This document shows, one piece after another, positions 1-59,547 of a stretch of 64,000 bases of DNA (the stretch's first letter is position 1; every line of letters starts with the position of its first letter). Both the position numbers and the translations under genes were made by a program. Source of the DNA: Marsupella aquatica. Taxonomy: Eukaryota > Plantae > Marchantiophyta. The DNA is taken from NCBI GenBank assembly GCA_973895155.1, contig OZ316896.1, positions 2,046,001-2,110,000 of the forward strand, in the 5' to 3' direction. The notes beneath the pieces were generated by a model. It had not been told where the DNA came from, did no database searches, and worked only from the letters and a program-made list of their open reading frames with translations.

Positions 1-322
1 TTACTTTGGAGCTTTTTAACAAAAAATGAACACTTCGATTTTGTCACAAAGCTGGCAGTCAGAATTGTGTTCTCATAACAGAGAAAGGTTTGTTCGCATC
101 TGCTTAAAAAATGTTAACATTACAGCCTGTTCTAATTAAAACACACTTGAAGGTTCGTTTGTTTAGTTTGCTTAAACCTGTGAATTAGTTTTATATTCAT
201 TATTATGGCACAATGTTCCCCTCCACAAAATCCAGTCCCAAAACCCAACAGGGTGCCGCTACTAGTGTTTCGTTAGCTTTTTTGAGTCTGCAATAACTTG
301 AGCATGTTTCACGTCTTTGCAG

Positions 323-3300
323 AGATTGGATGAAAAAGCACAGAGATTACCCTTTTGCAAGTCGGGAGGATTTTAAAGAGCTTATGGAGCTGACAGGGCT
401 AAGTCGAAAAATTGTGAGTCCTTGCTGTAATTAGCCTAAATGTTCTTCCTTCGTGAAAAGCAATTTAGAACCAGCAGGCTCTTTGGGTCATCAGTTTTTT
501 ACATTTTGAGAGTTGCTAATAGGCAGGACACAATCTCAAAGAGAAGTCTTTCGAAGTTGGAAGTATTTGTTTCAGTCGGAAAACCAGGCTGCTCAGATAG
601 GTAGAAGTTTATCGAATCAATCAATACATCGAAAGGCTGAAAAATAATTGACGTGAAAGTTGAAACTCACCTTTCGCAAGGTTTTCACATAGCTAAGGTG
701 TAACCAATTGCAGGTTGCTGGTAGGATGGAGAAAGAAAGGAAGAACCATCCTCAAAATTACCCAGAAGGGGCACTGGTATACGATCCATCAAGACGCAAG
801 AAACAGAAGTTGGGCCAAATCGTACATCACGTTCCTGGCCAACAGGAACAGGGGGAGATTAATAAATCAGACCATAAGGTGAAGAGCGCAGAGGCTTCAT
901 CTTCACAGAGGAAACACGGGTATGATTCACGTCAGCCCTTGGGGTGTCTTCTTCACCCATTTATAATTTGACAGACCCAATTTGGATAAAGTGGCCATTT
1001 GCCTTAGTCCTTCAAATATGGGAGAATCTTTTGAGGTTATATTCGATTATTACTAATGGAGGTCTACAGTTTCATTCAATCACAAAAGACATGCTCATTC
1101 GTTCCTTGTCTTGAACCTCACTAATAACTCGAATATCTCCCTTGCCACTGGATCATCCGATGAACTCATTGACCCTCACAATGGCGCCGTCTATATACTC
1201 CACATCTGAGGCAACTATACCACCTTAATCAGTAACGAAGAGCAAGTTCAAGATAAGATATCTACAGAAAAGGCTCGGTCGAGAAAGTCTGATAAACCAG
1301 CTCAACAAGAACTAGGCTCGATACCTCGTGAAGTTGATGACACAGCAGATACACGCATGAAATGGCAGACGAGACGACCCAGGTCTAAGAAGGATAATAG
1401 CAAAGGACTTGCTAAAGTTGCAAAAACCGTAGGGACAGGGGAATCTGAGAGACGTCTACAAAATGTAGGTTCAGACCCGGGTTCAGAAACCAAGTAAGTG
1501 CTAACCTTTTAATCTTGACATGTCTTGTGCTTATTAAAGTAGGACGTCTCGTGACACGTTGCTCCCGAATCATAAGTCAGGCGCCAGGTTTGCCGTGAGG
1601 TTTATTGGGTGTGCAAGAGATGCAGGTCCCGGGGCAGTTCCCATCAAGAGTCAGCAGCACTGCCGGCTGCACTACTTTTATTCGCAAGAATGTACTAATT
1701 CAATATTTTGAATCCATAATTCTGTCACGATAGTTCTTAATTCTAGTAGACTAAAAACTGCCATTAAGCTATTAGTAGAACTGCCATTAAGCTATTAGTA
1801 GACTCTTGCCGTAGTCTAGCGTGCCTGTAAAGTGAAGGAATATGCACCAAATCGAAGTATTGATTTCGCGAGAGTTTGAATTGAGCAGTTCTTTCAGATT
1901 CATGGACCCGGTACGCAAAGTTTGACCAAAATAAATCATCAAACACGAGGAATTTTCGTTTGAATTCTAAAATCTAACATCGGGTCTAACATAGATTGGA
2001 AAGGGAGTCTATTGAGGTATCGGGTTTGTTTCTCGGATAATTTGTTCCACATAAAGGAATGTAAAGTTCTCCTCTTTTGATTTCTTAAGCCAACCGGTAA
2101 GTGACTTCCTTCCAGAATTGCTTCCGGATCTGACGAGGGGCCAAGAGATCGAGAAGATCTAAGCAACTTCGATACCAGCACTTCATTGGACGACGAGGAA
2201 CTATATGTAGTGTCGCCTCGTGCCTTAAAGAATCTTTGGCTGGAACCACCAACTGGTTTATACCCTGACGACGCCGCGCTTAATTACTACCTTTTCGGCG
2301 ATGGGCGGGACATGATTGCTTATGAGAGTGATTTGGATGAGAGTCTGGTTCGTCCGGAAAACCCTCCACCTTCAGAACAAGAGGTAGTTGGCGAGGACCC
2401 TTGGGATGATCCTCCCTCCATGTCAGATCTTTTTATCGATGGTCAGGACATAGCTGTAGATCTTAGCAAATTCCACACTTTTGATGATGACGATGAAGAC
2501 GATGATGACCAAGAAGGCCCAAAAGCCACCTCGGGCTCGCCAGTTGATCGACGAAGAAAGAGATCCACGGGGAAAGACGAAGGGGTTGCAACACCTTCGG
2601 CCAAGAGGAGGGAGCAGATTAGTGGTAAGAATCTGGTCACCGAAAGACCCGCTTCGCAGGACTTTGGCACAAAGGCAATGAAGCCAACGACGGACAGCCC
2701 CTTTGACAAATTGGCTGACCAAATTGTTGAGCGAATGCTGGGCGAAGGGGTTGAGCCTGATAACGAGTTGAGCACTAATATACAGCAACTCATCAGAATG
2801 TACAAGGTACTATTTAAAGGGGTGTCTATTAGTTAGTCTTAGAGCACTGTTCTCGTTTGGTCAAGATGAAAAGATCGATCAGCAAAATAACAAATTCGCT
2901 GGAAGTCTTTTCTCATTTGTCTAGATGGATATCCTCTATATATATGTCGCACTCTACAGAGAGGAATTTTCTCCTCCCCTCCGCGTTTGTTGCTAAATGC
3001 ATTTGCTCTACTATGTTTGTTTCTTCGCTGACCAGGCATACTTGGAACAGAAATGTGCGAGCACGCACGCATGTGAGGTCAGTGACGCAGCCGCCGGGTC
3101 CCACCTGAATTTTAATTTGTTGGCCACATTGAGGATTAGCTGGTCCCGAAATCTGAGGAAAGTAATTGACTGTAGGACTGGATAATTGGCGACCCTCATC
3201 GCCATCCCGATTTCTGTGAGTGCTACGATGACGAAGGCCTGGTTTGCCGCTGGGACCAAAAATTTCGAGCCATGTCTTCCACAACCGAATGTTACGAGGA

Positions 3301-6300
3301 TTTTCAAATGGTAAGTGTGCTTTAATTTCATCATCACTTCGGCTAGAGTCCAATATATAATAGTGACTGTTGAAATTAATCTTGAAGGTCACTTAATTAA
3401 CTTCGTCGTCGTCAGCTGGCCTTCTTAACTTTTGTCAATAATTATCGTTTTAAAGCTTGGGCCATTCTATGGATGCCCGTACCAGAAGACAGACTACCTT
3501 CGATCTACTGTAACGTACATAGACTATACTAATAAGCAGTTCTCAGACGAATAGCTTCAAAAAATGTGCCATCCTCTAGTGCATCTGTCAAGCGAGTGCG
3601 TTCCCAATAATTCCAACTTTTTACTTCAATCATTTATGAATGGAAACTGCACTGATTCTGCCAACTAATAGGAAATTCAATTTCCTCGGTCAGTGTGTCA
3701 TTGGATCGAATAAAAATCGAGACCTAGGAATAGTTGACTCCTCGCCAGACTCTCTAAGAGACTTAGACAATTGTACAAAGGAACATAGGATAATCACAAA
3801 TCCCCTCAGTCTGTGAAAGTTATTTCTGTCCTGGCTGACTCTTCCAGGAAGTTACCAACATAGTAAATGACGTCGTTGAACGAAATGGAGGAAAATTAGC
3901 AGGATTCCCAATCTTCGCTGAAGAGATAATGAAGTAAGCTCATCCAGTGCCCTTGTAATTTAAAAATTTTAAGGTCTTAAGTAATATCACCTACCCTTTA
4001 TTCCAAATGATTTGGTTGTCAAATGAAAACAACATTTCACCATGATGTCCTTGCGCATTGTTTCCAGCCTGGTAATCGGAATGTTTTGTCAATTCGCCAT
4101 AGCTTAAATGAATGCCAGCTTGCACGTCGCCTAGCCTCAGTATAGATTTAATTCCTTTCTTGAAATTTCCGATAACATAAATAAAGATCTCGGACATTGT
4201 TCAACAGGAATTTTCGTAGGAAGCACCGCACCTCACCAACGATGGAGGACTTACAAAATTTATCTGCCCAGACGGGTCTTCAGGAACGGCAGGTTTGTTC
4301 AAAGTGATTGAGTCATTGCATGTCCAACACCTTGCTTGTCGTAATATACAGTATTGATCTGTCAACTTGTCTTCTCCTTTTCTTCCTTTGGGACATAGCT
4401 AGACACGATTCCATTGACCACGTCAATGGGTGATTATGAGCAACGGCAAATTTTGAATATTGAGTACACACGGTCCAGGTGTTGGAAGGGAAAAGGGCCT
4501 TGGATTCTACCAACATCAAAGTTCAAGGTTGCCACAAGGTATTCATTACAGGATTAATTACCGATAGAAGGAGAGTGCAGCAAAATATTCTGGGTGCCTG
4601 ATCTTGTGAAGCTCGATCTGATTTACCCAATTCTGGATTTATTTCTCTACTTAACCGTCTGGTCGCACTAGTGGGAGTGATTCAGTCTAGGAATCAGTGG
4701 GGACATGATACGTACGATCAATTCAATCCTTTGGCTGGGTATTTTTCAGATGAATTCAGACGTGCGTACTGATTGATTTAGCTAGACGAAACTGTTAGAG
4801 AATCCCGTAGAGAATGCGAACCCTAGCTTCATGAAAATCGGATTGAATTCATCTAATGGAGCCATGCATTAGTCAGTTTCATTTCGAACCCGCAACAAAA
4901 CTGACAAGCTAGAAAGAAAAATACGATGCAGTCGATCAGCATCTAGGGCCTTCTCTTAATAAACTAACTTGTTTGTTCCGACACTCCAAAGGCTTTCCCG
5001 AAATTCTGACAATACTCACAAATGCATAACGTACTGTTGCCGAGTGATATAGATAGAGAACTATATGACGAATGTTCTCCCGAAGCCCGAAGACAAATTT
5101 GACGCTGAAGAACACCAACAGGAAGGTGAGACAAGCAACAGAAAGGTTGTGAAGAGAAATACCAAGGCACTTGGGGTTTTGAAGTAAGTATGTCTCTATC
5201 GATACCCGATCCTCCCTTCGCCCATTCTCTAGCTAAATCAGGGCACCTATATGGGGTAATGCTCTCGCCAGATGCGTCAATGCCCAGGGCAGATTTCAAA
5301 CTACCAAAGTACCCAAAAATTAAAACAGTCCGAGTTAGACGCAAAGCATTCTGAAGTCCTTCCACATTCAAGGGCAATGTCCCAGTAAAAGCACCTCGGC
5401 TTTGTGCAGGAGAATGCCCTCATGAGAGGGCTTTACTATAATTAAACACTGCACCAAGATGCCAAGCTAACAGGATGTTCAATCGGTGCATAGCATTTCC
5501 AAGTAATGTGGCTAGTATTTCAATTGATTTGGTAAGGAGCTCCTAAAAATCATAAGATGGGATTGTCATGAAGTAAAATGAGAGGAGAGTGACAGAGTCG
5601 CCGTCTTTTATCCACCCCGTAGCATCATGTGCTTGTGTAATCTGAACTTCAATTAGCTCAATAATTGTGGAGAAGTACTGTCCAATTCTGTACTGGTCCA
5701 GTTAGAAAGGCTCAATCGGAGAAAGAAAAAGAAAAAAATCATAGAAAAACTAACACCATGTATGGCACTTGGGCGAACCCACACATTCCGCAACCCACCC
5801 ACGCTCAATTGGTGCTCGGTTCTTTATAAGGTGGAACTATGGTGATGGAAAATTTGTACTATGACCCTCCGTGCACATTGTAATTCAAAGCCCATCTAGG
5901 GTTGAGCCTCTAAACCATGATTCTCGGGGAAGGATTGACAGTGTGAGCAGACATAACACGAGGTCAGGAGAGATATTAATACTAGATGGACCCTCCAAAA
6001 TGCCAACTAAGCCTTGGTTAATGAACCCCATGAATGATATATCGGGGTCATTGATAGACCTTAAATCAGTATACCCAAAATCTCATGGCGTCCATCATGC
6101 AAGACTTTTTAATTTTAGGGTCCATGGAATATTTCTCTCGAGGAGGTCAGTGGTAACTTAGGGGACAAAACTCGTCTATTGAAGCCACTGCTTCTGATTC
6201 TCTTCAAATCAATATCTGGGCTTGACAAGTACAATCAATTATGCAAACTGCACATATCTAAGTAACGTCACACCCATGTGTGTCATAATCTTCATTAAAT

Positions 6301-7256
6301 TATATGATTTTTGGCAGAGGGTCTCACTATAGTTGTGCATGTTCCAGAGCCTTTGCGAGGAAGAACCGGGGGAAGAACTCTAGCCTCGGAGAAAAGGATA
6401 TAGAGATGCTGCAAATAAAGACCAACATGGCTCCAGCTGAGGTATGATTTGCTTACGTTTTTTTCTCTCAATTGGCCCACAAGTAGACAGTTCCCAAAGC
6501 TACTGTAGGTAAGGTATTTAATTTAATGGATGTATCAACCAATCTGGTAACTCACACACAATCTAATCATTGTGGCCTTGGGGTTTTCCTCGCACACCCT
6601 ATTATGATACAAATTTGTTTTATTTTTTGGTTTTGGGGTACAAATGGCAAAGTAGGCCTGCCAGAATGCATTACACATTCAGAGGAGAAAACACCTGTCC
6701 ATATGCATAACATTCATGAGTCTGTTACGAGCTACCAGACCAGTTTGTCAATATATGCAATATTTTGTATTGACAAAGAACTCAAGGCTTTTGTATCATT
6801 TTAGTCTCAACCATTATTTAGCAGTAATATATTGTTTTCTCCAACAACTATCTCTATTATTTCTAGTCCAAAATGGTTAGATGAGAACATTCACTTGGCT
6901 TCAATAGTACTGTTTGTAATTTTTCCAAAGTAAGTTTTGGACATTTTCTACACTGTTGTCTGCATGCTTCCTGGGGTTATATTATGTTGGACAACTAAGA
7001 TGCTGTGGGAAATTTAATTTTCTAAAAGAAAATAATGAAAAAATGCATACCCAAAACAACCTTTCTTTGTACTATGCGATAAGCTGTTAGGTTAGATAGT
7101 CTGATGGTGGACAAAAATTCAACAAAGAGGCAATCTGTAAGAACAAGAGCCCCAATCTTTGCTACCAATGACATAAAACTATTATTTTATGAACTATGTG
7201 CAGATTATAAAGTGGATTAATTATTATGGCAACAGGAACTCTGAGAAGAGGAATAG
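323..7256 (+). CDS. Partial spliced gene: multi-homeodomain protein with three diverged TALE-like (BELL/KNOX/MEIS-type) homeodomains; 5' and 3' ends not located
   Basis: Exons 323-413, 714-919, 1233-1493, 2116-2806, 3036-3077, 3176-3310, 3456-3509, 3848-3933, 4208-4292, 5053-5183, 6348-6441, 7204-7256. All introns are GT..AG and phase-compatible, giving 1929 nt with no stop. HD1 DWMKKHRDYPFASREDFKELMELTGLSRKI|VAGRMEKERK; HD2 AGFPIFAEEIMK|NFRRKHRTSPTMEDLQNLSAQTGLQERQ|IENYMTNV; HD3 KALGVLK|AFARKNRGKNSSLGEKDIEMLQIKTNMAPAE|IIKWINYY. ORF-track entries 708..971 and 2186..2836 are exon read-throughs. Confidence 0.72.
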
Positions 7257-10200
7257 GTAAGTGATTCTTTATAATTTAGTGAAGATTATTTTAGATTTGC
7301 AATCACTGAGATTTGATGACTCCATTCTCTTGAATATGAAGGTGTAACACAATGTCAGTAGTGAATCCATTGTGATACTCTGGAAGACTGTTACAATTCA
7401 CATTGAAAGCCAAGGCCAAGGCTCATCATGAGATTGTGCCCCCTGCCCAACTCACTCCTCCCCCTGCTCGAGTGTTGGTTGAGTTTTCTAAGTTCGGTGG
7501 AGACCAAAGTGCTTCTAGTGTACCCCACTTTGGGAGAGCTTTTTGTCAAGAGGAAAGTGAGTTGCTTCATCAGAGAGGACCTCCCACTGAGCTCTGCACT
7601 TTTGAGTGACCAGCACTATCCGCTACTAGTACTTAGAGTAATATTCCATTCAATGTTGCTGCACTGCAGCCCCGGTTAGGCATGTGTGAACAGCATTAAC
7701 TTGCTCAAAGCTGCCTCTTGTCCTTAATCTGTCATAAGGTTACCCACAAACTTAGATACAGTTGTCTATCTCTCTAAGTGCACACTCCTGGGAAGAGGCA
7801 AGGAAAGAAGCATCCTGTTACTTTGCACTAAATAGGATTTGCACTACATAATAAGTGCAAACCTGTATAATTGTGCGCTTATGGATAAGATCAAGTGTAT
7901 GGCAGCTTACAACTTCTTGTTATTTAATGTGCAATCGACATCCTGAGTGTGTCACTGAACAGTTTTGTGACTCTGACTCTAACTTGTGCATCATTGTTCT
8001 TAATTGTGGTATCCCTACCCCATAGTGTATTTTCTACTCTACTAAAAATGCCATGAACTTATTGAGTGAAGTGAACAATGGGATTGGGCGCTTACCGTTA
8101 AGTGGTCATACGCAGTTATCAAGGGTTTTCACTTCCAAACTTTTGTTTAGCAAAGAAAATTCAGGCCTTTTGCACTTCCCAGCTTTAGGTGCAGCACAAA
8201 CTCCTTGAAAGGGAAGAACGGGATGCTGAAGCTAACACCTAGACAAAGAATACTCTACATAATGATACTCTTGTGTTGGCAAAATAATCTAATTGTCAGC
8301 AGACAGAGCTCGCCCTTGTTTTCCACTCAACATGCATTATGTAAATAATTACCTTCAGGAAGAATTGTTTTTATTCATGTAAATAATGAAGATAGAATTA
8401 TTTCCCTTTTGATTTGACTGTTACAGGACAAAACACTGATGCCAGACAGGTCCAAGACAAAGATGCTATGTATATGGTTTTAAGGATGGGAGATGTCCCT
8501 TACATAATGGGGTATAAAGGCAACCATATAATTATGGTCGGCCTGCGTATGTGGGAAGACTGGAAAGACTTTTATCCCATTTAAGGGATGGGCTCCTGTA
8601 CTTAGTAAAATGTTAAGTGTCAAGTCATACCCCCAATTTTAAGTGTCGCATATATGTGGACTGTGCAGAAGTAGCTGATGACCTCAACAACTGACCTGGT
8701 GCCCCTGAGTGTGCGTAATGGTTGCCTCGATCACATGGTTGCCTCAATCCCTAGCACTGTGATGATTCTTCTGTGCAGAGCTCGGTGACTCGATGCAACA
8801 GAATTTTCCTGGTTGTAATTTTCTCTTCATATTCATCTGAAACAGGACCTCATCTTGAATTTTGAGTGGTGCGTCAACTTCGGCTCTTATGTTCTTGCTT
8901 TCATGTCTCTTCAACTTCAGAACTCTCTTTGATACGTCCTGCATTCGCTAATGTGTTTCTTTGCTCTAGGGACTGTGACATGATTAGAGTATTGCTCAGT
9001 GTCTCGACCCGGCAGATTTCCATCCTCTCTGAGTGGGCAGCTCACGAATGCAATTGCAGAGCTCCATATCCCACACATTACGTAGCTATGGTGTCTGTCT
9101 CTTTCTGTGTACAAATTGAATGGAATCTAGGTGGGTGAAACCTCTAGAGAATTGTCGTCTTTAGAAAATTATAAAAATTGTCCTTGTATTCCTCTTCTCT
9201 TCTTTGGGCACATGATGTAGAACCATGATCTGGCTTTGTACAGGCAAAGGCCAGCTGCAGTTGGATTAGGAGATTGCAATCCAGATTGGACTGGCAATTC
9301 AATGATTGAATTAGCTATAGTCTTTGTTTGACTCAGTTTGTACAGATCGATGGCTTGATGTCCTTCATAGTAAGGTACTGAGTGTACTAGAGGGAGTGTA
9401 AAATATATGTCATGATGCTTGATGGATCGATTGTCTGCCTAGCCTTTGGGCCTAATGTTTGGCCTCCAATTGCATTTCTTGCCAGCTAAATGTTCATTGT
9501 TTCTTTAGCCAATTTGCAATTGTCGTCCCGATTGTCGTTGTAAGAGGAATTTGTTAGATCTTGTGTGTCAGGAAGATTCAATTTTGTAATGAAATGATTC
9601 TTTTGCTTCCTCTTGCACAATTGTTGCCTTTTATTCAGTAGGACTCTCAAATTGACCAGGGGTGTTAGCAATGTCCAAATTGCGGGGAGCCTATTGTAAG
9701 TTTCATGTAGAAATTGACAGTTTGTCTTGGATTTTTTTCAGACTTTTGTTTCCTCTAGTGCAATGGTGTTTAGTGGTGGTGTTTGATGAAGGACTCTCGG
9801 GGGGGTTCACTTCCACTAAAGTGGCACATCACATGCAACGAATTATAGGCTCATTTAAATGGGTGTGGCGGAAGACTTCCAGTTTTGTGGAAGATCACAT
9901 AGGGCATATTTTATTGACTGGTCGGCTCTAAAGAACATATAGGCTTATTTAATTGTAAAAAATATTTTCTTTAAAGTTACTAGGGGTTTTTTAGTAAAAA
10001 AATGACACAAATTTAATAAAAAAAAGGTTTTGCAAAAAACTATTGTCACTTATAAGTTAGGGGTTCAAACCCTAAAACGGTGCACTCAATGTATGGTCCT
10101 CCATATACTGACCACCCCCCCCCCCCCTGGAGGAAGGAGCAGGATGTCCAAGGCATTTTGTCACATTTCAAATTGTCCCCAGCTCACACTCCCAAACATC

Positions 10201-10358: not shown

Positions 10359-10560
10359 ACTTTTGAATGGCGGATGGTAGAAATGATTTTAATTCATTTC
10401 CGCCCTTACATGGCTACTTTTGAATGGCGGATGGCAGAAATGATTTTAATTCATTTCCGCCCTTACATGGCTACTTTTGAATGGTGGATGGCAGAAATGA
10501 TTTTAATTCATTTCCGCCCTTACATGGCTACTTTTGAATGGCAGAAATGAATTAAAATCA
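10359..10560. repeat. 57-bp minisatellite, about 3.2 copies, self-complementary unit, ending in an inverted core copy
   Basis: Units start at 10359, 10416, 10473, 10530 (ACTTTTGAATGGCGGATGGCAGAAATGATTTTAATTCATTTCCGCCCTTACATGGCT). 10544-10560 GAAATGAATTAAAATCA is the reverse complement of the unit core. Confidence 0.95.
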
Positions 10561-17459: not shown

Positions 17460-18180
17460 GCGTTCATGGTCTATTGTCTAGAGTGAAGCATTGAAGGCTC
17501 TAGACTTGTGACTCCAAGGTGTGGTTGGAAAATGGGATTGGCTGTATTGTCTAGAATGGAGCACTCGAGACTCTAGACTTGTGACTCGAGGGGGTGGGTG
17601 TATGTGGAAAATAAGGATTGGGGAAGAGTGAGTTTGTAAAAGTGTGAAAATGGGGTTTGGCTGTATTGTCTAGAATGGAGCACTGGAGACTCTAGACTCA
17701 AGCGGGTGGGTGTCTATGGAAAATTATGATCGGGGAAGAGTGAGTTTGTAAAAGTGAGTCATATAATGGGTCATATAACTATTTATAGTCTCAATGTGAC
17801 CTTACTCTTCAGGGCATGTAGTCTAGAGATTGAACTCTTAGTATTAACTCTTAGGTCTAGAGTTACGACTATACTGCAGTTAGGGTTAACCTTAGTCATA
17901 GATTAGTCATGTTGACCACACACTATACCCAAGCAATGTTTGTTTGGATAGAGGGAATTCAGACTCATTGTTACGAAACCAGTTGAGAGAAAGGGTGAGC
18001 TTGTGTTGTGGATGTTTGGTATAGTTGGTCAACTTAGAGTGCAGTAAAGCTTTTGTGGTTTCCCATGGACATAGCCTCATGTGGAGGTGAATCATCATGT
18101 ATCTATCTGTGTCAACTATTTGATCGTTGGATGGTTCTGGGAGCCGTTGTGAATGTCGTCAATGCTCAACATGAAGCCTC
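17460..18180. repeat. LTR-like dispersed repeat with internal direct repeats; homologous to 62320-62700
   Basis: Three copies of a TATTGTCTAGA..CTCTAGACT unit (about 17470, 17545, 17662). 17845-18170 aligns by eye with 62320-62700 (CTCTTAGGTCTAGAG..AACCTTAGTC..CCCAAGCAATGTTTG..CCAGTTGAGAG..GTAAAGCT..GAGGTGAATCA..CGTTGGATG). Confidence 0.7.
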
Positions 18181-20461: not shown

Positions 20462-23400
20462 CTAGCCAAAATTGTTTAGGCATGCTGCAAGCGCCTGCTT
20501 CACTTCAGCACAGACTGCTGATTGACCAGCTGCGTTTTTCCGTTTAACCTGCACATTGTAGGATGAATGTGTTAGATTTGATTCACGATACCTGGAACAC
20601 CCGAATGTTCGCAATTCAAACTTCATGATGATGATATACATTACAAAATATGACAGCCCAGATTTGTTTTAACGAAACCCGTGGATGTCAATGTCCCTAA
20701 ATGAGCTGAGGGACCATTCCCATTGAGCTCAAGTACATTCAAATCAATTGGGGTTGGTGCATTTGGAATAGCAAATTGAGTTTCTGCAATTCATGTACAA
20801 AATAAGTAGCAAATTCATTGCGTAAAAATGGGAACGACTCAGTGAAGCTTGTCAAAAGACCTGGACGTTACCTTGACTATTATGCTGGCGTGGATCCGGT
20901 TGTCATTTACAGCCACATTGAAATTAATAACGGTCAATTGCATCTCTTTAAGACATGCAAAGATATGCATGGCAGTGTCCGGCGGGGTACAGGGGCTCCT
21001 TATTTCAATTGTGAGATTGCCAACTCCGTCGGGCGAAACCTGAATCTTGTCCTCCTCTGTTGGAGAAAGTTTACTCGGGCTACCCTTCGCCTTGGTGCTC
21101 ATACGAGGATCGACAGTGGACGATTGATATTGTTCTGCCCCTAATAGCTGGTTCGTCAAGCTGTGATTACTCTGTTCTAGATCCTTCACCCGCATCTTCA
21201 ATTCGTGGATGTAAGTTATGGTGGCTTCCAGAAGCGAAGCCTTGTCCATCTGCATGTATCGACCACGAGAAGGTTAGTTTGTAGCGATACTCCGACCTCT
21301 ACAGCCAACTAGTGCTTGTCTTGGACTCTAGACTGTAGGTGGGATCTAGATTCAGCTCTAATAGACTGCACGTAATATCGTAGTTCAAATTTCATCACAT
21401 GTATAGAAGAGGTAGGACAACAAAAGTTTAATCGTCGATGAATGAGCATCGTCAATCAGTGTTAAGACTCAATTCTGGTTCTTTGTTATTTCCTTATCCA
21501 AATCAGGCTATAAAATAGAAAATCTTCTTGGAATTGAATGGAACAGTTTTCCTGGACGAAACATTATATCTCAAGTTCACAATAGCTGAGTCTAATTCTG
21601 AACCTCGAAAGTTTCAGAAAGCTCTATTGACCGTTACTTTGAGAACTTCACTTTCTGAGGCAACCACCACGGAGTTTTCCATTGACATAGACAACAATAT
21701 CCGGTTTCAAAATTGACCTTTCTCGGGTTATTCAAATGCAGAATCAAACTAAACAAGAACAGTTTCTTAGCCGAGAGCAGACTTTGAGTCTTGCGCTGAG
21801 GACTCGGACGTAACCGGGATTGAATAAATGTTAGTCTTCAGCTTCTCGATTCATGTTGAACAAGCAACTCAAACGGAGGATAACGATTGGAGGGAATGAA
21901 ATTAAGAATTCAGTGCTGTTCCATACCTTGCCTGCACTTGGAATGAGGAATTTGAGCTGACTAAAGTTTTCGTTCTGCTTGTTTCTTCGTCTTCGCTCCG
22001 CAAGCATATGCGACACTGCAGCCTCGTCATGCTCCTGCGGAAGAGGTTCAGCTACCTGACCCGCAGCGTTGCCCAACTGCAGGACATTCCCGAACTGTAC
22101 CAGCCTGGGAGTTGCATCCGCATCCGTCGATGGCCCTAGCTTCAGGTCCTGCTGTGGATTCTGCTCCGGAAGGCTTGACTGCTGCCTCTCCAATCGCATA
22201 GTTCTCTGTGCCTGGGAGTGCCCTCCAGGTGTGCCCCCGCCATGTTGCAGTAAGTCGACGACCGGCTGCTGCTGCTCTTTTTGAGAACTGCTGATGGTGG
22301 AGGAGATCCTTGCGTGGATGCCAAAACTATGTCGGGAATAAGGAACATTGCTGTCAGGGGAAGTTTCTTTCGATGAGGGACCGGAGCCCCGCAGACCTCT
22401 ACCTCTCCAGGTGCTCTCGGATTCTCCAGCCATTGTCGTGCTGCTGCTGCCGCCACCGGTACCACCACCACCTCCACCACGGGGAACATTGTCCATTTCC
22501 GAAATATGACAGTCGGCGTAGCTCTCGAGAATTGCCGAGGAAATTTCGGTCTCTTCCACGTTCTGGGACCTGAGGCTCATCGAGCTCATAGAAGAAGATC
22601 CTCTTAGAGATGCTCCAGTTACTGCACCTAGGAAACCCTGTTGCTGCTCCTGATCAGCGGATTCAGCAGCCATAAGTTGCTCGAGCGTGCTAGAGAAAGG
22701 AAGTAGTTGCCCGATGTCATCATTCGGGGCCATAATTTCTTCCAGACGTGAGGATGTAGCTGACGAGCTTCCAGGTAAATCGCGGAATGCGATGTCAAGG
22801 GTTGAGGTGGCTTCAGCCATTGATGTCCAGCTCTGGAATGCGTTCATTTCCATCTGTGACATTGCGGACTCCGTGGCCCACGATGATGTTAATCTGTCCC
22901 CGGGACTTGGCTCTGCTGATCCAGGCAATTCAGGAATCCCCACCGAAAGCTGCAGTGGTACCGAGTTTAATCTACCTTGAGCTACCTGTCTGGCAAAAAT
23001 GTCCTCGTGCTCTACAGACTGCAACAATTCTGAATAAATGTTCGGGCCCATCTGCCGCTGCTGCGCTTTGGGATGTACAGCTCCTTCAAAGCTCGACGGA
23101 GAGAAGTTTGTAGTGTACTTTCTCGCCGATTCCAATGGAATTTCGTCCGCCATGGCAACAGATGATAGAGGATGAGTAATTTCATATGACGCTCGCATTT
23201 GCCCGCGAAACAGGTCTGATGCTGACTGATGAGCGTCTGGTTGTGGGATACGAGCCGCCGTGTTTTCGTGGATTAAATGTGGTAATCCATCAGCCAGGAG
23301 GTGGAGCAGGTGCCTTTTGATCTCGTGTGCCAAGTCCTCACTCTCTCGCACCTGCGCATTCACGCCGACAAATTAATTAGCTACAATTCCAAAGGCAAGA

Positions 23401-24496
23401 CTCAAAAAGAGCATGATAAATCATAGTCAGAAGCACTAGACAACTCGAGAACTTCTCGGCATACTGAATTTCAAGACCCAGGCTCGAGGTGCCTAAGTTA
23501 AATACTTTGCGGACCAGACAGCGATTTTCAATTTTCGAAATGTCGTTGACAGAATCGTAATCTCCACCTTCGAATGGATCTTTGACCTCTGAGAAAATCA
23601 GTTCAACAGAATTGAAGTTCAATTTGCGGAAGGATTTCGAAATATTTTACCCTGCTGACAGTGCCTAACTCCAGCACATACGAGCTCGATGGAAGGCCGA
23701 GAGGAAGGCATACTATGGTCTGAATGCCAGCTGCCTTTAAAAAGCGGGTCTGATTCTCCACTGGGAGCTCCAAGCTATCCAGGTTATCTCCGCTCAACCA
23801 AAGGATGCTGTTGGTCATATGCGCAAGAGCATGACCTGCGAATCTGTCATTTCACAGTCCGGTCAAATAATTTTAGAATAAAATTTACTTCCCACGAATT
23901 CAAACGTTCGAATAATCACTCCGAAAAATCTCAACACAGAATTAATTGCAAAGCAAGAACGAATTGATGATGCGCGATGATCTATACCCGACTCCTGGAG
24001 TGAAGGTGCAAGAGCTGTATAAGGAGTGGAAGAGCACAGCGTTGGCATCGTCGTTGCTCCGCATGTGAAAGTACCCTTGCTTCCAAATCAAGTTCCTGCA
24101 ACCGACGCGACCCACGATCGACAACGTCACATTGTGAGATTTGAGAGAAATGCTTCTGTCAACGAATTTGAATTCAACAATGACTACGAACTAAAGGCAA
24201 GTCTAAAGTCATGGAACGAAGTCATCCAAGTTGAGTCCTTCAGTCCTTCGAATCAAATTAACCACAGTGGAATCAACGATGAACCGGCTGATATATTCAC
24301 ATTGATTCGTTTGTTTAGATCGTCGGCACTCAAAATGAAAAAAAAAAAACAAGCACTTAGATAATGAACGAACGAACCTGCCATCAGCAGTCAATGTCCA
24401 CAGCGCAGCGTAAGACCAGTCAAGGGTGCATACAATCTTCCGCAACAAGTCCCACCAAGTGGTGTTCAATTCGGCCATATTGTGCTCCACAGCCAT
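20462..24496 (-). CDS. bHLH transcription factor, subgroup III (IIIf/R-TT8-like architecture): bHLH-MYC_N + bHLH + ACT-like domain, about 769 aa
   Basis: Exons 24496-24378, 24095-23988, 23843-23651, 23351-21927, 21249-20872, 20548-20462 (2310 nt, in frame). MYC_N motifs WSYAALW, LIWKQGYF, AGIQTIVCLP, VLELGT; bHLH SHMLAERRRRNKQNENFSQLKFLIPSAGK|MDKASLLEATITYIHELKMRVKDLE; C-terminal ACT-like region. Confidence 0.9.
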
Positions 24497-27400
24497 AGAA
24501 GATGATGTCCGACTCTTATCCAGATCTTTGAACTGCTTCACCGAGCTTCGGGTAGCTGCTTGGCGTGCGAACAATGAATCGTGGACGAGAATAATTCACC
24601 TGAAAATTAAAGTCCGCCGCAATGTATATCAGTCTGGTCACCGCCTCCTGCTGCTATCTTTGAGTCGAGCCTTCGATGGTGCCCGTGCGAGTGGGAGGTA
24701 CCAACGACAGATACCCACAGACGCCGCCTGCCTGGCTTTCATTCACAGCTGAATTTATGAGCACCGGGAAGATTTTGAATTCACGACGCACTGATCTCTC
24801 GCCCCGCCCTGAGTTCTTGCTACGATTGAACAGCTTGCTTCCGAGTTATCGAGCGACTTACTGCTTGTCGGGATTGGAATCCATGACATAATCGGTTCTT
24901 CGATCTTCAGCTCGTTTGAACTCCGCAAATTCGCTGACACGACTTGTTCGACTTCCTCCGAGAGTTGGCAGAATTCCAGGAGCGCGCAAGGTTCTCACAC
25001 TCGAATCGCACTTCCTGACTTGAAGAATCTTTCAGAATTGACCCGAATTTTCAAACTTTGTTCAAATGTAGTCAGCGCAGACTGATCGATCATCCAAGGA
25101 ATCAACCTGGCTCCAAGAGAGATAGAGAGAGAGGCTTTCGTCGCCTGTGCTCTTGTCGACGTTAGAAAAGGGAATCAATCCCAAGTCAGCAGAGAAAGGT
25201 GCAAGTCTCGCGAAAGATCTTCTACAGTGAGTGCGGCTGGGCCAACACTCGCCAAAGATAGAGATAGAGGCGAAGGAAGAACACAAGAGAACTCTCCTTG
25301 ATATTCTTCGCGCCAAGGCAAATGGAGAAAGCTTTTGTTCTCCGAACTGTTCTGCTTCGTTCTTCCTCGTTCTCACAGAGCCATGGGGAAGGCTGGGCAG
25401 CGAGAATGTCATATAATGGAGATCGGATTTCTCCTTGATCGGTCGAGTGAATGTTGTCATGGCCCCGGCCTCGTTTTCGTGCAGCAACCCAAAACGCGGA
25501 GAGGGAGCGAACTCCGCTTTGTTCAATTTCGCCATGTGCGTTTCGAACTCTCTACTACTAACGAACTTCATCTTCTCTCTCTCGACGCGTCGAACGAAAC
25601 CTGTATTTCCTTCATCTCGTCACACGGCTGCCCTTTCGCTCGCTCCTTCTCTGCCCGTCCCGTGACTCCCACTCCCGTCCCCGTTCCTCTCCCTCTCGCT
25701 GACGCGTGGTTCTGCGACCCCGTCACTCCAGTCTCTCCCGTCCCTTCTCTTCTCTTCTCTTCTCGTCCCCCGTGGGAACAAGTCTCGCGGGGGTCTCCTT
25801 CTCTTCTCTTCTCCCCTCCCGTCGCAACAAGTCGACCTCCCCCGCGGGACCGAACAAACCCTGGTTCCGGAGACGGATTGCGATTTGGGTTTTACTGGAG
25901 GTTTTGGACTACTAGGGCGTCGCAAAGGTTGAAAGAAAAAGTCGGGTAAAATACGAAAATCATGTTCCCATGGAACACAAGGTTCGTCCTTAAAACCCCC
26001 ATGGATCACCACATTTCACAAAAAAATTATTATTATTGACCCCATGAGAGGTCCTTTTCAAAATTCCTGGCACCAAAGTGTGTCATATTAACAACAACAA
26101 ACTAGACTCATTAGTTTTGTCAATCAATTTACAGTTTTCATTCGTGTTTGCATCAATTTGAATGTAAATTTTGGGACACCATGCCATAAAAAAACATGTA
26201 AAAATTTAGAAATACAAAGAGCAAGACGGGTAAAACTGTCACTATGTAACCGTTTTAGTTACGTATCCAATTTTAGAAATTAAATTTAAATATTTAAAAA
26301 ATAATAAACAATGACTAATAACTAACTTGATGACTTCTTCATTGGCACATGGAGTAAGATTTTCAGCCTTTTGTAATTCAGGCAAACTGTCACCTATGGT
26401 CTGAATTTGAACTCAATGAATTGATACAATTCATTTGATCATACATTGATCTAGTTTCAAATCATGGACTTGCCACGGATTGACTATTGACTCTTGTAGC
26501 TTGAGAATTTGGTTGCATGTAGGGAAAAGGACTGATTTTGACAACTACTTGTGATAACCATGTTGTGGACTTTGGCCTGCAAAGCAAAGTATTTATGTGG
26601 CAATTGAAAAAATGTCAAACTGCTCAGGCCATGGCTGAATGGGTCCACAATTGATTTCATGAGAGAATCTAATCTAATCTAAACAATACAAGCTGTAAAA
26701 TATATCATATTTGTCCAACACAACATGACTACTAGTTTCTTTTCCTAATCAGACTTCTCTCTTTTGAAAGCTTAAGTGTTGCCCTTCTCCATTTGGTGAA
26801 TAGTTGTGTCAAGGTCATGAGACTATTAACCTCTAATTCAAAACTTGTCATATTCAGACTTCAGTGAAATCTCCAGAATTTTCAATAATTTGAAAATACA
26901 TAGACAAATTAGTTGACAAATATTTTACAAAGAGGACTCAACTACTAGAAAGCTTAGGGTTCCTTGCTTAGAAAAGCAGATTTCTCAATTGATCTAGAGA
27001 AGGTAGTCTTCTCAACTCAAATTGAGTGCACAGGGCAATTTAGTTGTCAAATATAATGTCATCCAATGCCCAAATCAACTAAGGTAAACAAAATTGTGTC
27101 TTGGGTTTATTAATTAATGTTCTAAAATTAGTGAAAATATCTCATAGATCTTAAGTGTTTTAATGTGTGCTAGCAGAGCATTATGGACCCTTGTATGGAC
27201 CATATTAGCCTCTCAAAATGCAAGTTCAAACAAGGCCTAAAAAATATAGCTAGGGGTCCACAAACTAATTTGTATTGGCCCTTTTCAGTAAAAAGTTTGT
27301 TGTGGCCTTCATACAAACATGTTTTTCATGACAAGTACCAACACATATGAAAGTCATGAGATTACAGGACAAAGTTTTTGTGGGCCTGACAAGGACAAGT

Positions 27401-34106: not shown

Positions 34107-38437
<4,331 letters not shown>

Positions 38438-46978: not shown

Positions 46979-48400
46979 ATGGTAGCATGATCTCGATGGG
47001 GCGGATACCTATCCCCGCACGCGTGGCGCTTTAAAAAAATAGTCCTTACGGCTTCTGTTAGGGAAGATTCCCGTCGTCCCGAACATGCAGGCGCCAGAAG
47101 GGGACGACCGAAACAGCGAAGAAGGAGGAGGCATTCAGCAAAAAGCAAACAGCGGAATTAAATTTTCGAATGAATGATCGTTTCATCAGGCTTCAGCGTC
47201 CTCCTCCACTCTGTGTACTGTTCTACAGTCCTGCGCTGTGCCTGCTGCTGATTCCTGCAGTCATCCGCTGGTGTGACAGTACTGTAGTAGTAGTGTGTCA
47301 CTCTGGTGCCTCTACAGATGGACAGCACCCACCTCACCAGAACGATGATGACAGACTCGTGAGACAATCTCGCTGTGTGCGTGGGCAAGCACTGGACTAG
47401 TAGTACTCATCGCGAGACTGGCCTTGCTGAGGTCTTTCTCCCCGTCGATGGATTGGATTGGGCTGGATTGGAATATTAATTGGATTCGGAAAGAGCCTCA
47501 CCAGGCACCAGCTGTTGTTGTTGGGTTGTGGATGATAACAAATCAGCACTGGTCTACACAAGGTCGGTAAAATTTGGAAGAAGAAGAAGCGCAGTGGGAG
47601 TGGGACCGCTTTCTCGACCAACATTCGCTTGTGCGTAGAAGAGCATGCGCCCGAGGGAGAATCGAATCGAAGAGCGCTCCGGTCGGTGATGCCTGGAAAC
47701 GTGTGGAAAGGCTCGTCGCGGTCGGGGTGCTTTAGTTTGTTGAGCGGAAAAGCTTGATCCTCGTCAGTCTACTGAACCACTGGAGTGCGGTATTTTAGTA
47801 CTTCATGTGATCATGTCGCTTCCTGTGCCGAAGGTTTTCTCGGTCTGGGCTTCTGAAGATGATGCCGAGCTCGTGATATAACTGTGAGCATTGTCGTTAG
47901 GCGGCCGTGTCGGATCTGCCCTACTGTCCCAGGAACGCAGGTCTTCACCGTGAGTGTTCAGGACGACTCCAGGTCTCCGTGGACTCGACCGCTTGAAGAG
48001 AGAGGATGATCTTTGACATTGTGAGGGAGTGATCATTTTTGTCCTATTTCCGAATTTTTGTGCTAGCTTATCGCCGTAGTAATCCGAAAGTCCGAGCGCC
48101 TGCCCAGAAAGATCGCGCATTTTGTTCCCAACGAAGAAACACAGTGAGGACTGCAGAGAGCGAGATCATTTGTTCATGTCTGTCTCCATTATTGTTGGCG
48201 GAGAAAGAAGGCCTGGAGCAGCGACCACGCGCCAGAGTTTGTTGCTGTCTTGTGGATGGTGCCGTTCTGCAATGGAGAGCAAGCAGAGGGCGTATCCTGA
48301 GTCGTGGATGCAGTGACTCTTGAAAATTGCAGATCATCATCTGGAATGAGCACTTCTTTGTAGAAACAGTGTCTAGCTTGTCATCCGGCGGGGGAGGTGC

Positions 48401-51400
48401 ATGGCTCAACAAGCAGCGGGAGCCAACAAGTTCGAAATGTCTTTATTGATCTCGTGGAAGTTGATATTCCTGCTGCTGCTCTCTCTTCTCCAACTCTCTC
48501 CCGGACTTGGACTGTCCCAAGATGGGCTGGTCCTCCTGGAGTTCAAGCGCAGTGTGGACGATAGCCAGGGAAACCTGCAGACGTGGAATAGCTCAGACCT
48601 ATTCCCCTGTGGATGGGCCGGAGTCACCTGCGATCCAACGAGTCAGCAGGTCACGACGATCTATTTGTACAACCAATTTCTCTCTGGTCCAGTTCCTGGG
48701 ATGCTATGTCAGCTGCCAATGCTCGTCTCACTTGTCCTGGGACTTAATTATCTCAATGGGTCCATCCCAACTACGCTCATGGAGTGTAAGCGCTTGGAGG
48801 TTCTCGACTTGAGCTACAACTACATTGTCAGTCCTTTGCCAGATAACATCTACCAGCTTCTGTCCCTCAGAGTGCTGGATCTCGCGTACAACAATTTCAG
48901 CGGTGTGATCCCTGCCAACATCGGTTACCTGCCTGCTCTCCAAAGTCTCAACCTTTCGGCGAACCTCCTCGAGGGGCCCCTCCCTATCGAATTGGGAAAT
49001 CTTAGCAGCCTCGTAGAGCTCGTGCTGGACTACAACAACTTTAGTTGTAACCTTCCTCCAGAGTTGGGAAATCTCATTCATCTTGATCTCCTAAGTGTTA
49101 CGTGGTCAGAATTAACTGGTCAGATCCCAGCTTCTTTGGGGAATACGAATCTCACAGACCTCTTCTTCACTGGAAACGACCTCGTGGGACCAATTCCCCC
49201 CGACCTGGGTAAGCTGAAACGTTTGCAAACCCTAGACTTGAGTCAGAACGCTCTCACAGGTCCTATACCAGACGAACTCATGTACTTCCCAGAGCTTCAA
49301 AACTTCTTACTCTGGCAAAACAACCTGACTGGGGAAATACCCTCTTCTCCCGGGAACCTCAATTCCCTGGAATTATTCGATGTGTCCCTAAATCAATTAG
49401 ATGGACCAATTCCCGAGTGGCTTTCCGTGATTCCTAGTTTGGCTCTTTTTCAGGCCTTCATGAACGGCCTCACTGGTGGCATTCCTCTGGGTTTCGGTTC
49501 TCTTCCAAACCTTTATTGCTTCAAACTGTTCAGCAATCATCTCACGGGCAGCATTCCCCAGAATCTGGGAGAGTCTTCGGTTTTAGAAAATCTCGATCTG
49601 TCATCAAATCAACTCGATGGACATATTCCTCCAGGTCTCTGCGCTGGAGGAAACCTTACGCGTTTGAATCTGTTCGAGGTGAACATTTCAACTCTTCTTA
49701 TTTGGATGTTGCCAGCATATTCTGCGTCGCCCTGGTCCTGCTTTTTCTCTCCCTCGTTCTCTCAGTGCTAGATTGCTATTTTCTGCATTCCGTCCGTGTA
49801 TCAGTATACGCTCTAGTTTACTAATTGCTCACGAGCGGAGTGGCAGACTAGTCTTTCGCGGTCCTTTCGCACTCACCGTTTGGCCCATCTGATTACCACA
49901 GGTTCTCTCACTATCGTCAGTCTTAGCTGTTCATTTAGTCTGTCAACTTAAGTGTTTTTAAGGTCCTCCCACATTTGATTGTTTTCCACAACTGTTGTCT
50001 CACTCAAGTAGCTCATTCTGCAGGGATGTGAGGCATTTGCCTTTCTTCTTGTGTTTGTGCCTCGCTATCCGTGTGATGCTTACTTGTGTGGATGTTCGTT
50101 TTGCAGAACCAATTGTCTGGCCCTATTCCCATGGGTCTCGGAAGTTGCCACTCCCTTCAGAAGTTCCGTGTTGAGAACAACCAGCTCGCTGGCCCCATTC
50201 CTGACGGCGTATGGAGTTCTCCGAACATGGTGTACTTGTCTCTTTCCGACAATCTCCTGAGTGGGAGTATCGCGTCGAGTATTGGCAACGCCTTCGCATT
50301 GGAAGCGCTGCATATCGCAGGCAATCAGTTCACTGGTTTGCTACCCCTTACGATTGGGAACCTTCCTAATCTGACAGAGTTTCGGGCATCATCGAACGCT
50401 CTGCAAGGAAACATTCCCACGGAGCTCGGGCAGTTGCAATGGCTGTCTACGCTGGAACTAGGACTGAACTCGTTTAATGGGTCGATTCCCCACGAAATTA
50501 GCCAGTGCCTTAGGCTGGATAAGCTGAACCTATCGAACAACCACCTGAGTGGTGGGATCCCCTGGGAGCTCGGTGACTTGCCGTCGCTCAATACTCTAGA
50601 TCTCTCTTATAATGACCTCTCCGGACCCCTTCCCCCTCAGCTCGGGAAACTTCAGCTCACCGAATACAATTTTTCGTTCAACAACTTAACAGGCCCTCTG
50701 CCTGCCCCATTCAACCTCACTTTGCTCCCGTCCAGCTTTGTAGGGAACCCCGGTTTGAATCTGTGTAACAACGACGGAAGTCTTTGTAGTGTTCCCGAGA
50801 CGAGCGTCCCCAATTCTAAATCGAACCACGCCGCCATAGCATGGGCCATTGGAGCTTCGTTCGCTGCTGTTGCAGCGATCCTCTTCGTGGGAGCTTGCTG
50901 TCTCTGGAGACGGTACTATGTTAGCGTGTACTACTGGACGGACCGGCGAAGTGATAAGGATTTAACTTGGAGCCTGAGATCTTTCCAGAAGGTGAACTTC
51001 ATTCAGGAGGAAGTGATGGAAAAGTTGAGCGAGAGTTGTTTGATAGGCAGTGGTGGGTCCGGAAAGGTTTACAAGGTGGATCTGAGCAACGGGCAGTCTG
51101 TAGCTGTGAAAAAACTCGAAGCCCGATATGACAACGGTTTCGTTGCGGAGGTCGAAACTCTTGGGAAAATCAGGCATCGGAACATTGTGAAGCTCCTCTG
51201 CTGCAGTTGGAATTACGAGTCCAACGTCCTCGTCTACGAATTTATGCCGAATGGGTCACTCGGGGACTACATCCATAACTCCAAATGCGCTTCAGTCCTG
51301 GGCTGGGACACTCGTTACAAAATTGCAATTGGAGCTGCTGAGGGGCTAGCGTATTTGCACCATGATTGCGTACCTCCTATTGTTCATCGTGATGTAAAAT

Positions 51401-51924
51401 CGAACAATATTCTATTAGATTTTGACTTCGAGGCCCATCTTGGCGATTTCGGCCTTGCGAAGCCCTTCGTGGAGAAATCCATGTCCACTGTTGCTGGATC
51501 CTATGGCTACATTGCCCCAGAATATGGCTACACTTTGAAAGTGTCGGAGAAGGCTGACATCTACAGCTTTGGGGTCGTTCTACTGGAGCTGGTGACTGGG
51601 AAGAAGCCGATCGAGCCTGAGTTTGGAGATCAGGATATCGTCAAGTGGGTTTCTAAGAAGATCGAGACCAAAGCTGGAGCTGTGGGCATTCTGGATCAGC
51701 AAATCAGGGCCTCTTCGCAGGAGAGCATGATGCTTGTGCTTAAAGTTGGTCTGTTGTGCACCAGCTTTTTACCTTCCAACCGCCCGTCCATGCGAGATGT
51801 GGTGCCGATGCTTCTGGAAGCTTCTCCAAGAAGATATCGGTCTTCTCGGAGCTTGAATTCGCAGGTTAGCGAGTGTAAGATTAGTGTGGACCCTCCCATT
51901 TTCTCTGTAGTTGAGAAATCCTAG
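48401..51924 (+). CDS. LRR receptor-like kinase, subfamily XI, HAESA/HSL-like, about 1031 aa, 2 exons
   Basis: Exons 48401-49678 and 50107-51924 (phase-0 GT-AG intron). Signal peptide, LRRNT CGWAGVTC, about 20 plant LRRs (LxxLxLxxNxLxGxIP), FVGNPGLNLC cap, TM AIAWAIGASFAAVAAILFVGACCLW, juxtamembrane WSLRSFQKVNF, IGSGGSGKVYK, AEVETLGKIRHRNIVKL, RD kinase HRDVKSNN/DFG/GYIAPEY. Confidence 0.93.
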
Positions 51925-58500: not shown

Positions 58501-59547
58501 GGGTTTGCCAAAGTTCTGGAGTAGCAAGTTCTGTAGTAGTGACAAACCCTAAGCTTCTAGCCTCGGTAGAATTGTTGAACGTCAAACTTCCAGTACTTTC
58601 GATCTTAGCATGTAAACATGATATTGATAGCTCTCAGGTGGAGTTGATAAGTCAAATTACTTATCTACCCTTACCTGTTTACTCTTGAGGTCTTCGACAG
58701 TCTCCATAGAAGCCTTGGCGAGAACTTTCGAGTGCAAGTGCATGGAACCGAACGTGCTCGAATCCGGTGCCGAAATGGTTTTCACCAACGAATTGAACGA
58801 TTCTGATGATCCACGGGCAGCACGTTTCGCACTTTCCCGAACCTAGAAAATTCCAGTTAAAATTGTCATTCGGCCCAGACTCGTGTCAGTCACGACTCTT
58901 TGCCAAAGCGACTGGAGTATAATTTCATTGAGTCTTTCCCAGTGGTCTCAAGTGTCCATCAACACCACAAACAAAGAGAAAGTGAAGTAGTTGGTGGACA
59001 GCCAATTTCAGTGAATCAAAGACAACCATACCTCAATGACGGCAAGTCGAGGGATAGGAAGAAGCGTTGCTACAATCGCCATCCCCATTCCGAGGGCGTC
59101 CGGAGAAAGCATCTTCAGAGGGAAGCTCACAACGTTCATGTCTGGCGTGTAGTGAGCTGTTATGTACACAATGCTGATTTGTGCAAGAGCTAGTTTCCGG
59201 CCCAGGATGTGAGTCTCAGAAAGGTACGCGATCAAAATGCTGCTGATCCCAGTGCACGCAATCGCTGCGAATTGTGAAATGGGGGGCCTAATCACTTTCA
59301 AAACTGCGATCGTAGACGTCATTGCGGGGATTGTGACCGTCAGTATCCCCCAACTGTTGTGCAGCACGGTTCCCAGTGGCGGCCCCGCGAGGAGCACAGC
59401 CAACACTGGTGAAAGAACTGGAACTGAAGCTAGGGATTGGAAGCCCGGCATATACAGAAGCATCGCTGCCACCAGCAGGCACGCCCATCCCGTCCTCGTC
59501 GCCTCGGCACACCTTAGAAAAAAACGATACTTGTACTCCGACTTCAT
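55586..59547 (-). CDS. FUSC_2/ALMT (aromatic acid exporter) superfamily membrane protein, p-hydroxybenzoate efflux-like, about 1036 aa, 3 exons
   Basis: Exons 59547-59032, 58842-58675, 58012-55586, all phase 0. N-terminal TM bundle (RTGWAC, KLALAQISIVY, ALG..ATLLPIPRLA); second TM bundle (FWAPVTVG, RLQGTVLGSIYG, LLLLTPWVIFSSY, YGYSGLVSAFTAAILMLG, FAMDRITETFVG); EAALEPDLWFVPF. Confidence 0.9.

Follow-up and report, generated by a model that had tools for sequence, protein, structure and literature searches.

Predicted exon structure of the gene and its neighbourhood

The window, by which we mean the whole analysed stretch of 64,000 nucleotides, carries a chain of predicted exons near its start. 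Reading positions 1-9000 with the candidate splice sites listed, we found 11 GT-AG exons on the plus strand, spanning 323..7256, that join without a stop into a frame of 634 codons (with acceptor 6318 for exon 10) or 624 codons (with acceptor 6348). The preliminary description had given 12 GT-AG exons and about 640 codons for this interval; the stop-free chain holds, but the twelfth exon was not found. All exon junctions are predictions from the DNA; the sequencing runs listed as containing the locus are all of DNA, and none of RNA was among them. The 11 chosen donors match at least 6 of the 9 consensus bases, as do 92 of the 494 GT sites in 1-9000, but the splice sites were chosen by eye, so that this comparison is not unbiased and overstates the case. 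The acceptors read YAG in all 11 predicted exons. In-frame alternatives remain for the boundaries between exons 2 and 3 and for exon 5.

The first exon seen (exon 1, 323..413, +, phase 2 to 0) is predicted to encode the core of a homeodomain, HD1, from the end of helix 1 through the TALE loop and helix 2 to the turn. Exon 2 (714..919, +) would supply helix 3 of HD1 and a basic linker. Its donor matches only 6/9 consensus bases and has alternatives, and its frame stays open to 968, with a stop near 969. Exon 3 (1233..1493, +) encodes a charged linker; its 5′ boundary is uncertain, its donor scores 8/9, and it is contained in an open frame (1210-1494) of 95 codons in phase with exon 2. The weak exon 2 donor and the open frame behind it could also mean that two tandem genes or transcripts are present, the first ending with HD1 at the stop near 969 and the second starting from exon 3 or 4 and carrying the later repeats, HD2 and HD3. 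HD1 would then be a last homeodomain, matching the rule in Marchantia that the last is the best conserved, and internal promoters are known in MpBELL3/4. However, the first methionine of exon 3 follows that stop by only about 390 bases, the exon 3 frame runs open in phase with exon 2, and helix 3 of HD1 is itself degenerate. We regard such a division as very unlikely and describe the chain below as one gene.

Exon 4 (2116..2806, +; 230 codons) is acidic (23 % D+E) and includes a basic cluster resembling a nuclear localisation signal. The 14 codons of exon 5 (3036..3077, +) are optional, as the frame is open without them too, and exon 6 (3176..3310, +) encodes a Cys-containing and acidic segment with no family match. 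Exon 7 (3848..3933, +) would encode helix 1 of HD2, with its end at codon 17 (phase 2); exon 8 (4208..4292, +) holds the HD2 core, and exon 9 (5053..5183, +) combines helix 3 of HD2, a linker and the putative helix 1 of HD3. The putative HD3 core lies in exon 10 (6348..6441, +), for which acceptor 6348 is preferred although 6318 is also in frame, and the putative helix 3 of HD3 in exon 11 (7204..7256, +). An additional homeodomain in exons 5-7 was considered and rejected.

Both ends of the gene are open within the window: the exon for helix 1 of HD1 is missing at the 5′ end, and exon 11 ends in a donor. As this donor is in phase 2, the gene continues past exon 11. Neither the helix-1 exon of HD1 nor the gene start was evident in 1-322, and both probably lie upstream of the window start, past which the best-matching contig extends by about 7.6 kb. 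A cryptic exon near 526-600, seen by eye, was rejected on account of a 1-base deletion at this place in a second organism, organism B.

A candidate for a further exon was found at 8970..9090 (+), with a pyrimidine-rich acceptor whose phase fits the donor of exon 11. It resembles a TALE domain in its helix 1 and PYP loop and is the top core under the external TALE profile introduced below; the match is not significant (E 2.2), and additional searches of this segment gave no match. It is possible, judging from this resemblance, that it represents half of a fourth homeodomain, and such a half-domain could soften the mismatch with the best-conserved-last trait of Marchantia. No exon for helices 2 and 3 of the half-domain was found. 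A similar W..PYP motif recurs once, at 29024. No conserved fourth core was detected elsewhere in the window (3257 stretches), a six-frame scan downstream yielded no core stronger than those of the gene itself, and none of the 71 downstream plus-strand stretches scanned matched a homeodomain family.

Downstream lies a VPS38/UVRAG-like gene (12.7-15.5 kb, minus strand), convergent with the homeodomain gene. One VPS38 exon shares 91 % identity with Calypogeia fissa, a leafy liverwort of the Jungermanniales, and 69 % with Marchantia paleacea; this single neighbouring gene suggests a leafy liverwort as host. Farther along we noted a bHLH factor with a weak ACT-like match (20839-24595, −), a class I tRNA synthetase for Glu/Gln (34107-34520, +), an LRR receptor kinase (48377-51924, +) and a FUSC/ALMT-like transporter (55586-59550, −). 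Short dispersed repeats at about 6050-6125, 7440-8130 and 8570-8640 are matched by many other contigs; those in intron 9 and downstream are probably relics of mobile elements. Tandem repeats occur at 1756-1802 (23 bases), 10359-10542 (57 bases) and 17528-17756 (112 bases).

Homeodomain signal, probable internal duplication and recognition helices

Against Pfam Homeobox_KN, the HD1 core exon scored 24.6 bits (cut-off 24; E 2.3e-5). The HD2 core exon gave weak matches to Pfam Homeodomain (E 0.024) and Homeobox_KN (E 0.098), and the HD3 core (exon 10) had no Pfam match. The Homeobox_KN scan proposed in the preliminary description as a check thus bore out HD1, found HD2 weak and gave nothing for HD3. 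The ungapped alignment claimed for HD1 was confirmed with TGIF2LX and MEIS, at a weak E of about 0.4. The three-residue loop of TALE domains is exact in HD1 only, being two residues shorter in HD2 and one longer in HD3; the core exons measure 91, 85 and 94 nt, respectively.

For an external TALE profile, we used the three TALE domains of P0035, a protein unrelated to the window gene. The joined HD1 scored 28.1 bits and HD2 24.3 bits, and neither score was reached by any of 500 shuffles. With the Homeobox_KN match of HD1, these scores put HD1 and HD2 among TALE homeodomains by profile. HD3 scored 1.0 bits, which was equalled or exceeded in 45/500 shuffles and is not significant, so that the scores fall in the order HD1, HD2 and, far behind, HD3. 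Compared with HD2 itself, HD3 built with acceptor 6348 did better (47/5000 shuffles as good, p ~0.01), as it did against a profile including HD1 and HD2 (9/1000, p ~0.01); with acceptor 6318 the corresponding numbers were 330/5000 and 309/1000. To allow for the free choice of splice sites, we enumerated the possible joins in the HD3 region and in 16 control regions. The proposed HD3 join ranked first of 63 in its region under the profile with HD1 and HD2, at 5.4 bits, against at most 4.3 for the best join of every one of the 16 control regions, and 28th of 63 under the external TALE profile. Two homeodomains, HD1 and HD2, are therefore firm, and a third, HD3, is likely by these comparisons, with a marginal signal; of the three TALE-like homeodomains originally claimed, the first two stand. 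Structure-based approaches added little: a PDB sequence search with the HD2 and HD3 cores gave no match, fold predictions for single exons gave no information (pTM 0.21 and a single short helix for exon 10, pTM 0.16 for exon 9), and an ESM Atlas search returned no usable match for exon 1 or exon 9.

In each of the three repeats, the core exon begins at codon 17 (phase 2) and closes between codons 44 and 45. HD2 and HD3 are interrupted at two identical positions, and the HD1 core exon has matching boundaries. These shared intron positions point to internal duplication of an exon cassette, and together with the profile scores they back the earlier view of a repeat-expanded TALE derivative. Judging by the phases, the unit duplicated in tandem long ago would have been a cassette of two exons, the first running from phase 2 to 0 and the second from 0 to 2; no DNA similarity is left among the repeats, which argues for the age of the event. 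A codon-24 intron is absent from every repeat. In the part of the intron table of Joo et al. available to us, moss BELL genes have introns at 24[2/3] and 44/45, GLX genes at 44/45 and Klebsormidium KNOX genes, both KNOX1 and KNOX2, at 27/28; the 44/45 intron is recorded there for Physcomitrella BELL and algal GLX genes (PMC6219170). That BEL and KNOX genes differ in intron position is also noted by Mukherjee et al. (PMC2775110, in part). Since 44/45 is common to moss BELL and GLX genes and 27/28 is the position in Klebsormidium KNOX, the predicted intron positions favour the BELL/GLX side over KNOX.

The helix-3 residues are R48, M49, K51 and R53 in HD1 (exon 2), Y48, M49, N51 and L53 in HD2 (exon 9), and W48, I49, Y51 and G53 in HD3 (exon 11), with numbers that we take to follow the standard homeodomain convention, anchored on the 44/45 intron. 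Trp48, Asn51 and Arg53 are together in none of the three repeats, and HD1 lacks both Trp48 and Asn51, a point missed in the preliminary description. According to the portion of PMC5575656 consulted, Trp48, Phe49, Asn51 and Arg53 are highly conserved for DNA binding and stability; the window gene does not carry this canonical set. Judged by these residues, the visible part of the protein probably binds DNA poorly alone.

Protein searches gave no homologue of the gene. In comparisons with longer proteins, exon 4 matched 0 of 2310 candidates and the three-core alignment 0 of 75. A three-core profile run against 1.84 billion representatives had seven matches, six of them unrelated repeat proteins and the seventh P0035, a multi-TALE protein of 1093 residues that carries three Homeobox_KN domains, two of the CXC (TCR) type and no sign of special kinship to the window gene. 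No MpBELL or Calypogeia orthologue was recovered in protein searches, which, with short or low-complexity queries, is weak evidence. Metagenome scans matched 0/590 and 1/529 stretches, and the single match was rejected as a chance similarity within a bacterial contig.

Changes between copies of the locus

For positions 1-9000 of the window, organism B has two copies of the locus, one near-identical and one diverged, covered to a similar depth; a hybrid, a polyploid or a pair of paralogues would look like this. Between 323 and 7256, all 12 indels listed for the diverged copy fall in introns (p ~0.02); one of the listings stopped 59 indel rows short of its total. Among the exon changes listed there are no stop codons, and the exon 6 acceptor is still YAG in organism B despite a change at 3173. 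The codon counts that follow rest on the listed substitutions, 40 of 339 and 40 of 45. In exon 2, 7/12 of the changed codons listed are silent (p = 0.005), including all of the first five, against 2/20 in the other exons; 18 of the 20 changes listed in exons 1, 3, 4 and 6 alter the amino acid. Pooled over exons, 9/32 of the changed codons listed are silent (p = 0.21), which is not different from neutral, and purifying selection across the whole frame therefore lacks support.

The reading frame thus seems to be kept while the protein changes fast, a combination that fits a reproductive protein and also relaxed selection. The latter raises the question of whether the gene is a paralogue recently relaxed or dying, in effect a pseudogene in progress. 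Its degenerate recognition helices and the 18/20 amino-acid changes among those listed would suit such a fate, and in Riccia fluitans the BELL2/3/4 genes have been lost, according to the section of PMC11923412 seen. Against this stand the 624 stop-free codons with intact splice sites, the confinement of the listed indels to introns, the silent excess in exon 2 and the lack of stops among the listed exon changes, and we consider decay highly improbable.

Relation to BELL-gamete genes and other TALE classes

The preliminary description set the gene against KNOX and BELL proteins with a single homeodomain, and so implied a novelty that does not survive: liverwort genes with several are in print. 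As given in the consulted parts of Dierschke et al. 2021, the BELL-gamete genes MpBELL2/3/4 carry two or three homeodomains that arose by intragenic duplication; they are large, evolve rapidly, have relatives throughout liverworts, and encode proteins in which the C-terminal homeodomain is the best conserved (PMC8476127). In Marchantia polymorpha these are Mp4g09650 (MpBELL2), Mp8g02970 (MpBELL3) and Mp8g07680 (MpBELL4) (PMC8476127; PMC8478417). The portions of the preprint by Dierschke et al. that we drew on describe each homeodomain of MpBELL3, 4 and 5 as spread over three exons, and MpBELL2/3/4 as expressed in antheridia, with MpBELL3/4 also present as short egg transcripts (bioRxiv 10.1101/2020.04.06.027821). 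MpBELL4 binds MpKNOX1 and brings it into the nucleus, and Marchantia mutants arrest as zygotes, as far as described in the sections used (PMC8476127; Hisanaga et al., PMC8478417). For MpBELL2-5, no match to POX, KNOX or ELK is reported. In the literature that we searched, with most subscription papers outside its reach, Marchantia is the only genus with characterised multi-homeodomain BELL-gamete proteins, orthologues having been surveyed in Riccia and Ricciocarpos, and no title listed deals with a multi-homeodomain BELL gene in a leafy liverwort.

The reading that we favour, with moderate confidence, is one spliced gene, from a leafy liverwort, whose product is a TALE protein of the BELL-gamete type. 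Its homeodomain was probably copied internally, and the protein would be delivered by a gamete as a partner of egg KNOX1 and help to start the diploid programme. In favour of this reading are the open exon chain, the TALE scores, the VPS38 neighbour, the published BELL-gamete precedents, the homeodomains divided over three exons, the 44/45 intron, the lack of a POX, KNOX or ELK match in the scanned exons, the confinement of the listed indels to introns and the silent excess in exon 2. Against it are a conservation gradient opposite to that of Marchantia, with the C-terminal repeat the weakest, the HD3 score with the external profile, the codon-17 intron in place of the 24[2/3] intron of canonical BELL genes, the 2/20 silent changes among those listed outside exon 2, a host assignment from one neighbouring gene and, as weak evidence, the protein searches without an MpBELL or Calypogeia orthologue. 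By analogy with Marchantia, the gene would be expressed in antheridia or sperm, perhaps also in the egg, and the predicted protein would bind egg KNOX1. Its basic clusters may carry KNOX1 into the pronuclei, the acidic middle region (exon 4) may supply an activation region, and the KNOX1 complex would help to start the diploid programme after fertilisation. As the recognition helices of the window repeats are degenerate, the choice of targets would fall chiefly to the KNOX1 homeodomain, or else to a repeat, still intact, that might lie upstream of the window.

The same helices could instead belong to a TALE derivative that expanded independently, for example out of GLX-basal/BELL5 or out of a BELL-gamete branch of its own, and no longer reads DNA. 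No repeat combines W48, N51 and R53, the conservation gradient is reversed, and the codon-17 intron is not seen in the BELL and GLX rows examined of the published table (PMC6219170); moreover, Riccia and Ricciocarpos have BELL3/4-like sequences without homeodomains, according to the part of PMC11923412 at hand. Yet the phylum is already known to have a clade of BELL genes with several homeodomains, which makes a single origin simpler, and the unseen 5′ part, into which the best-matching contig reaches, could hold an intact repeat. We think this alternative unlikely; in it, the derivative would titrate KNOX as a decoy or scaffold, a counterpart to the KNOX1A/B proteins, which lack a homeodomain. 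That the leafy-liverwort lineage multiplied the homeodomain three or four times independently, lost DNA reading in every copy and made of it a fast-evolving gamete scaffold or decoy for KNOX1 appears rather improbable. If a DNA-blind scaffold were true, the homeodomains would be protein-contact modules only and a possible species-compatibility filter at fertilisation. As the architecture is already in print, the surprise is limited; under the BELL-gamete-type reading, a leafy-liverwort case whose helices are degenerate and whose conservation gradient is reversed would illustrate the freedom with which a zygote-activation factor may change. The gene also gives a test of whether a BELL partner must touch DNA or merely escorts KNOX1.

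By architecture and host rather than by a tree, the window gene probably belongs to the BELL-gamete group. Its visible repeats agree with the layout of two or three homeodomains over three exons each, with the first exon of HD1 beyond the window, and the host, judged by the one VPS38 gene, is a liverwort, within the liverworts and basal mosses that the group comprises. The best-conserved last homeodomain of Marchantia is absent, but this is a described trait and not part of the clade definition. The canonical BELL features, POX (SKY plus BELL domain) and the 24[2/3] intron, are missing from the visible exons. Pfam scans of 9 of the 11 exons matched neither POX, KNOX nor ELK, the 5′ end of the gene being outside the window, and the same scope applies to the MEINOX and ELK domains and the 27/28 intron of KNOX genes, none of which were found.

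Like MpBELL2/3/4, the window gene probably sits in a liverwort and combines several TALE homeodomains, probably derived by intragenic duplication, in one large, strongly divergent protein with no recognisable POX/BELL domain; like those of MpBELL3/4, its homeodomains are cut over three exons. It differs from MpBELL2/3/4 in that likeness to TALE domains is highest in the first visible repeat and lowest in the last. A second, possible difference is that W48, N51 and R53 occur together in none of its repeats. With canonical BELL genes (MpBELL1, PpBELL1-4, BEL1) it shares the TALE loop in HD1 and the 44/45 intron, but these have one homeodomain, POX and a 24[2/3] intron where the window gene has three repeats, lacks a POX match and places an intron at codon 17. 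GLX-basal MpBELL5 is similar in its homeodomain over three exons and, from one GLX-basal row with intron data, in the 44/45 intron; unlike the window gene, it is outside the multi-homeodomain list, and it is expressed in archegoniophores. KNOX1 and KNOX2 share the TALE superclass with the window gene but have MEINOX/ELK domains and, in Klebsormidium, the 27/28 intron, neither of which is visible here.
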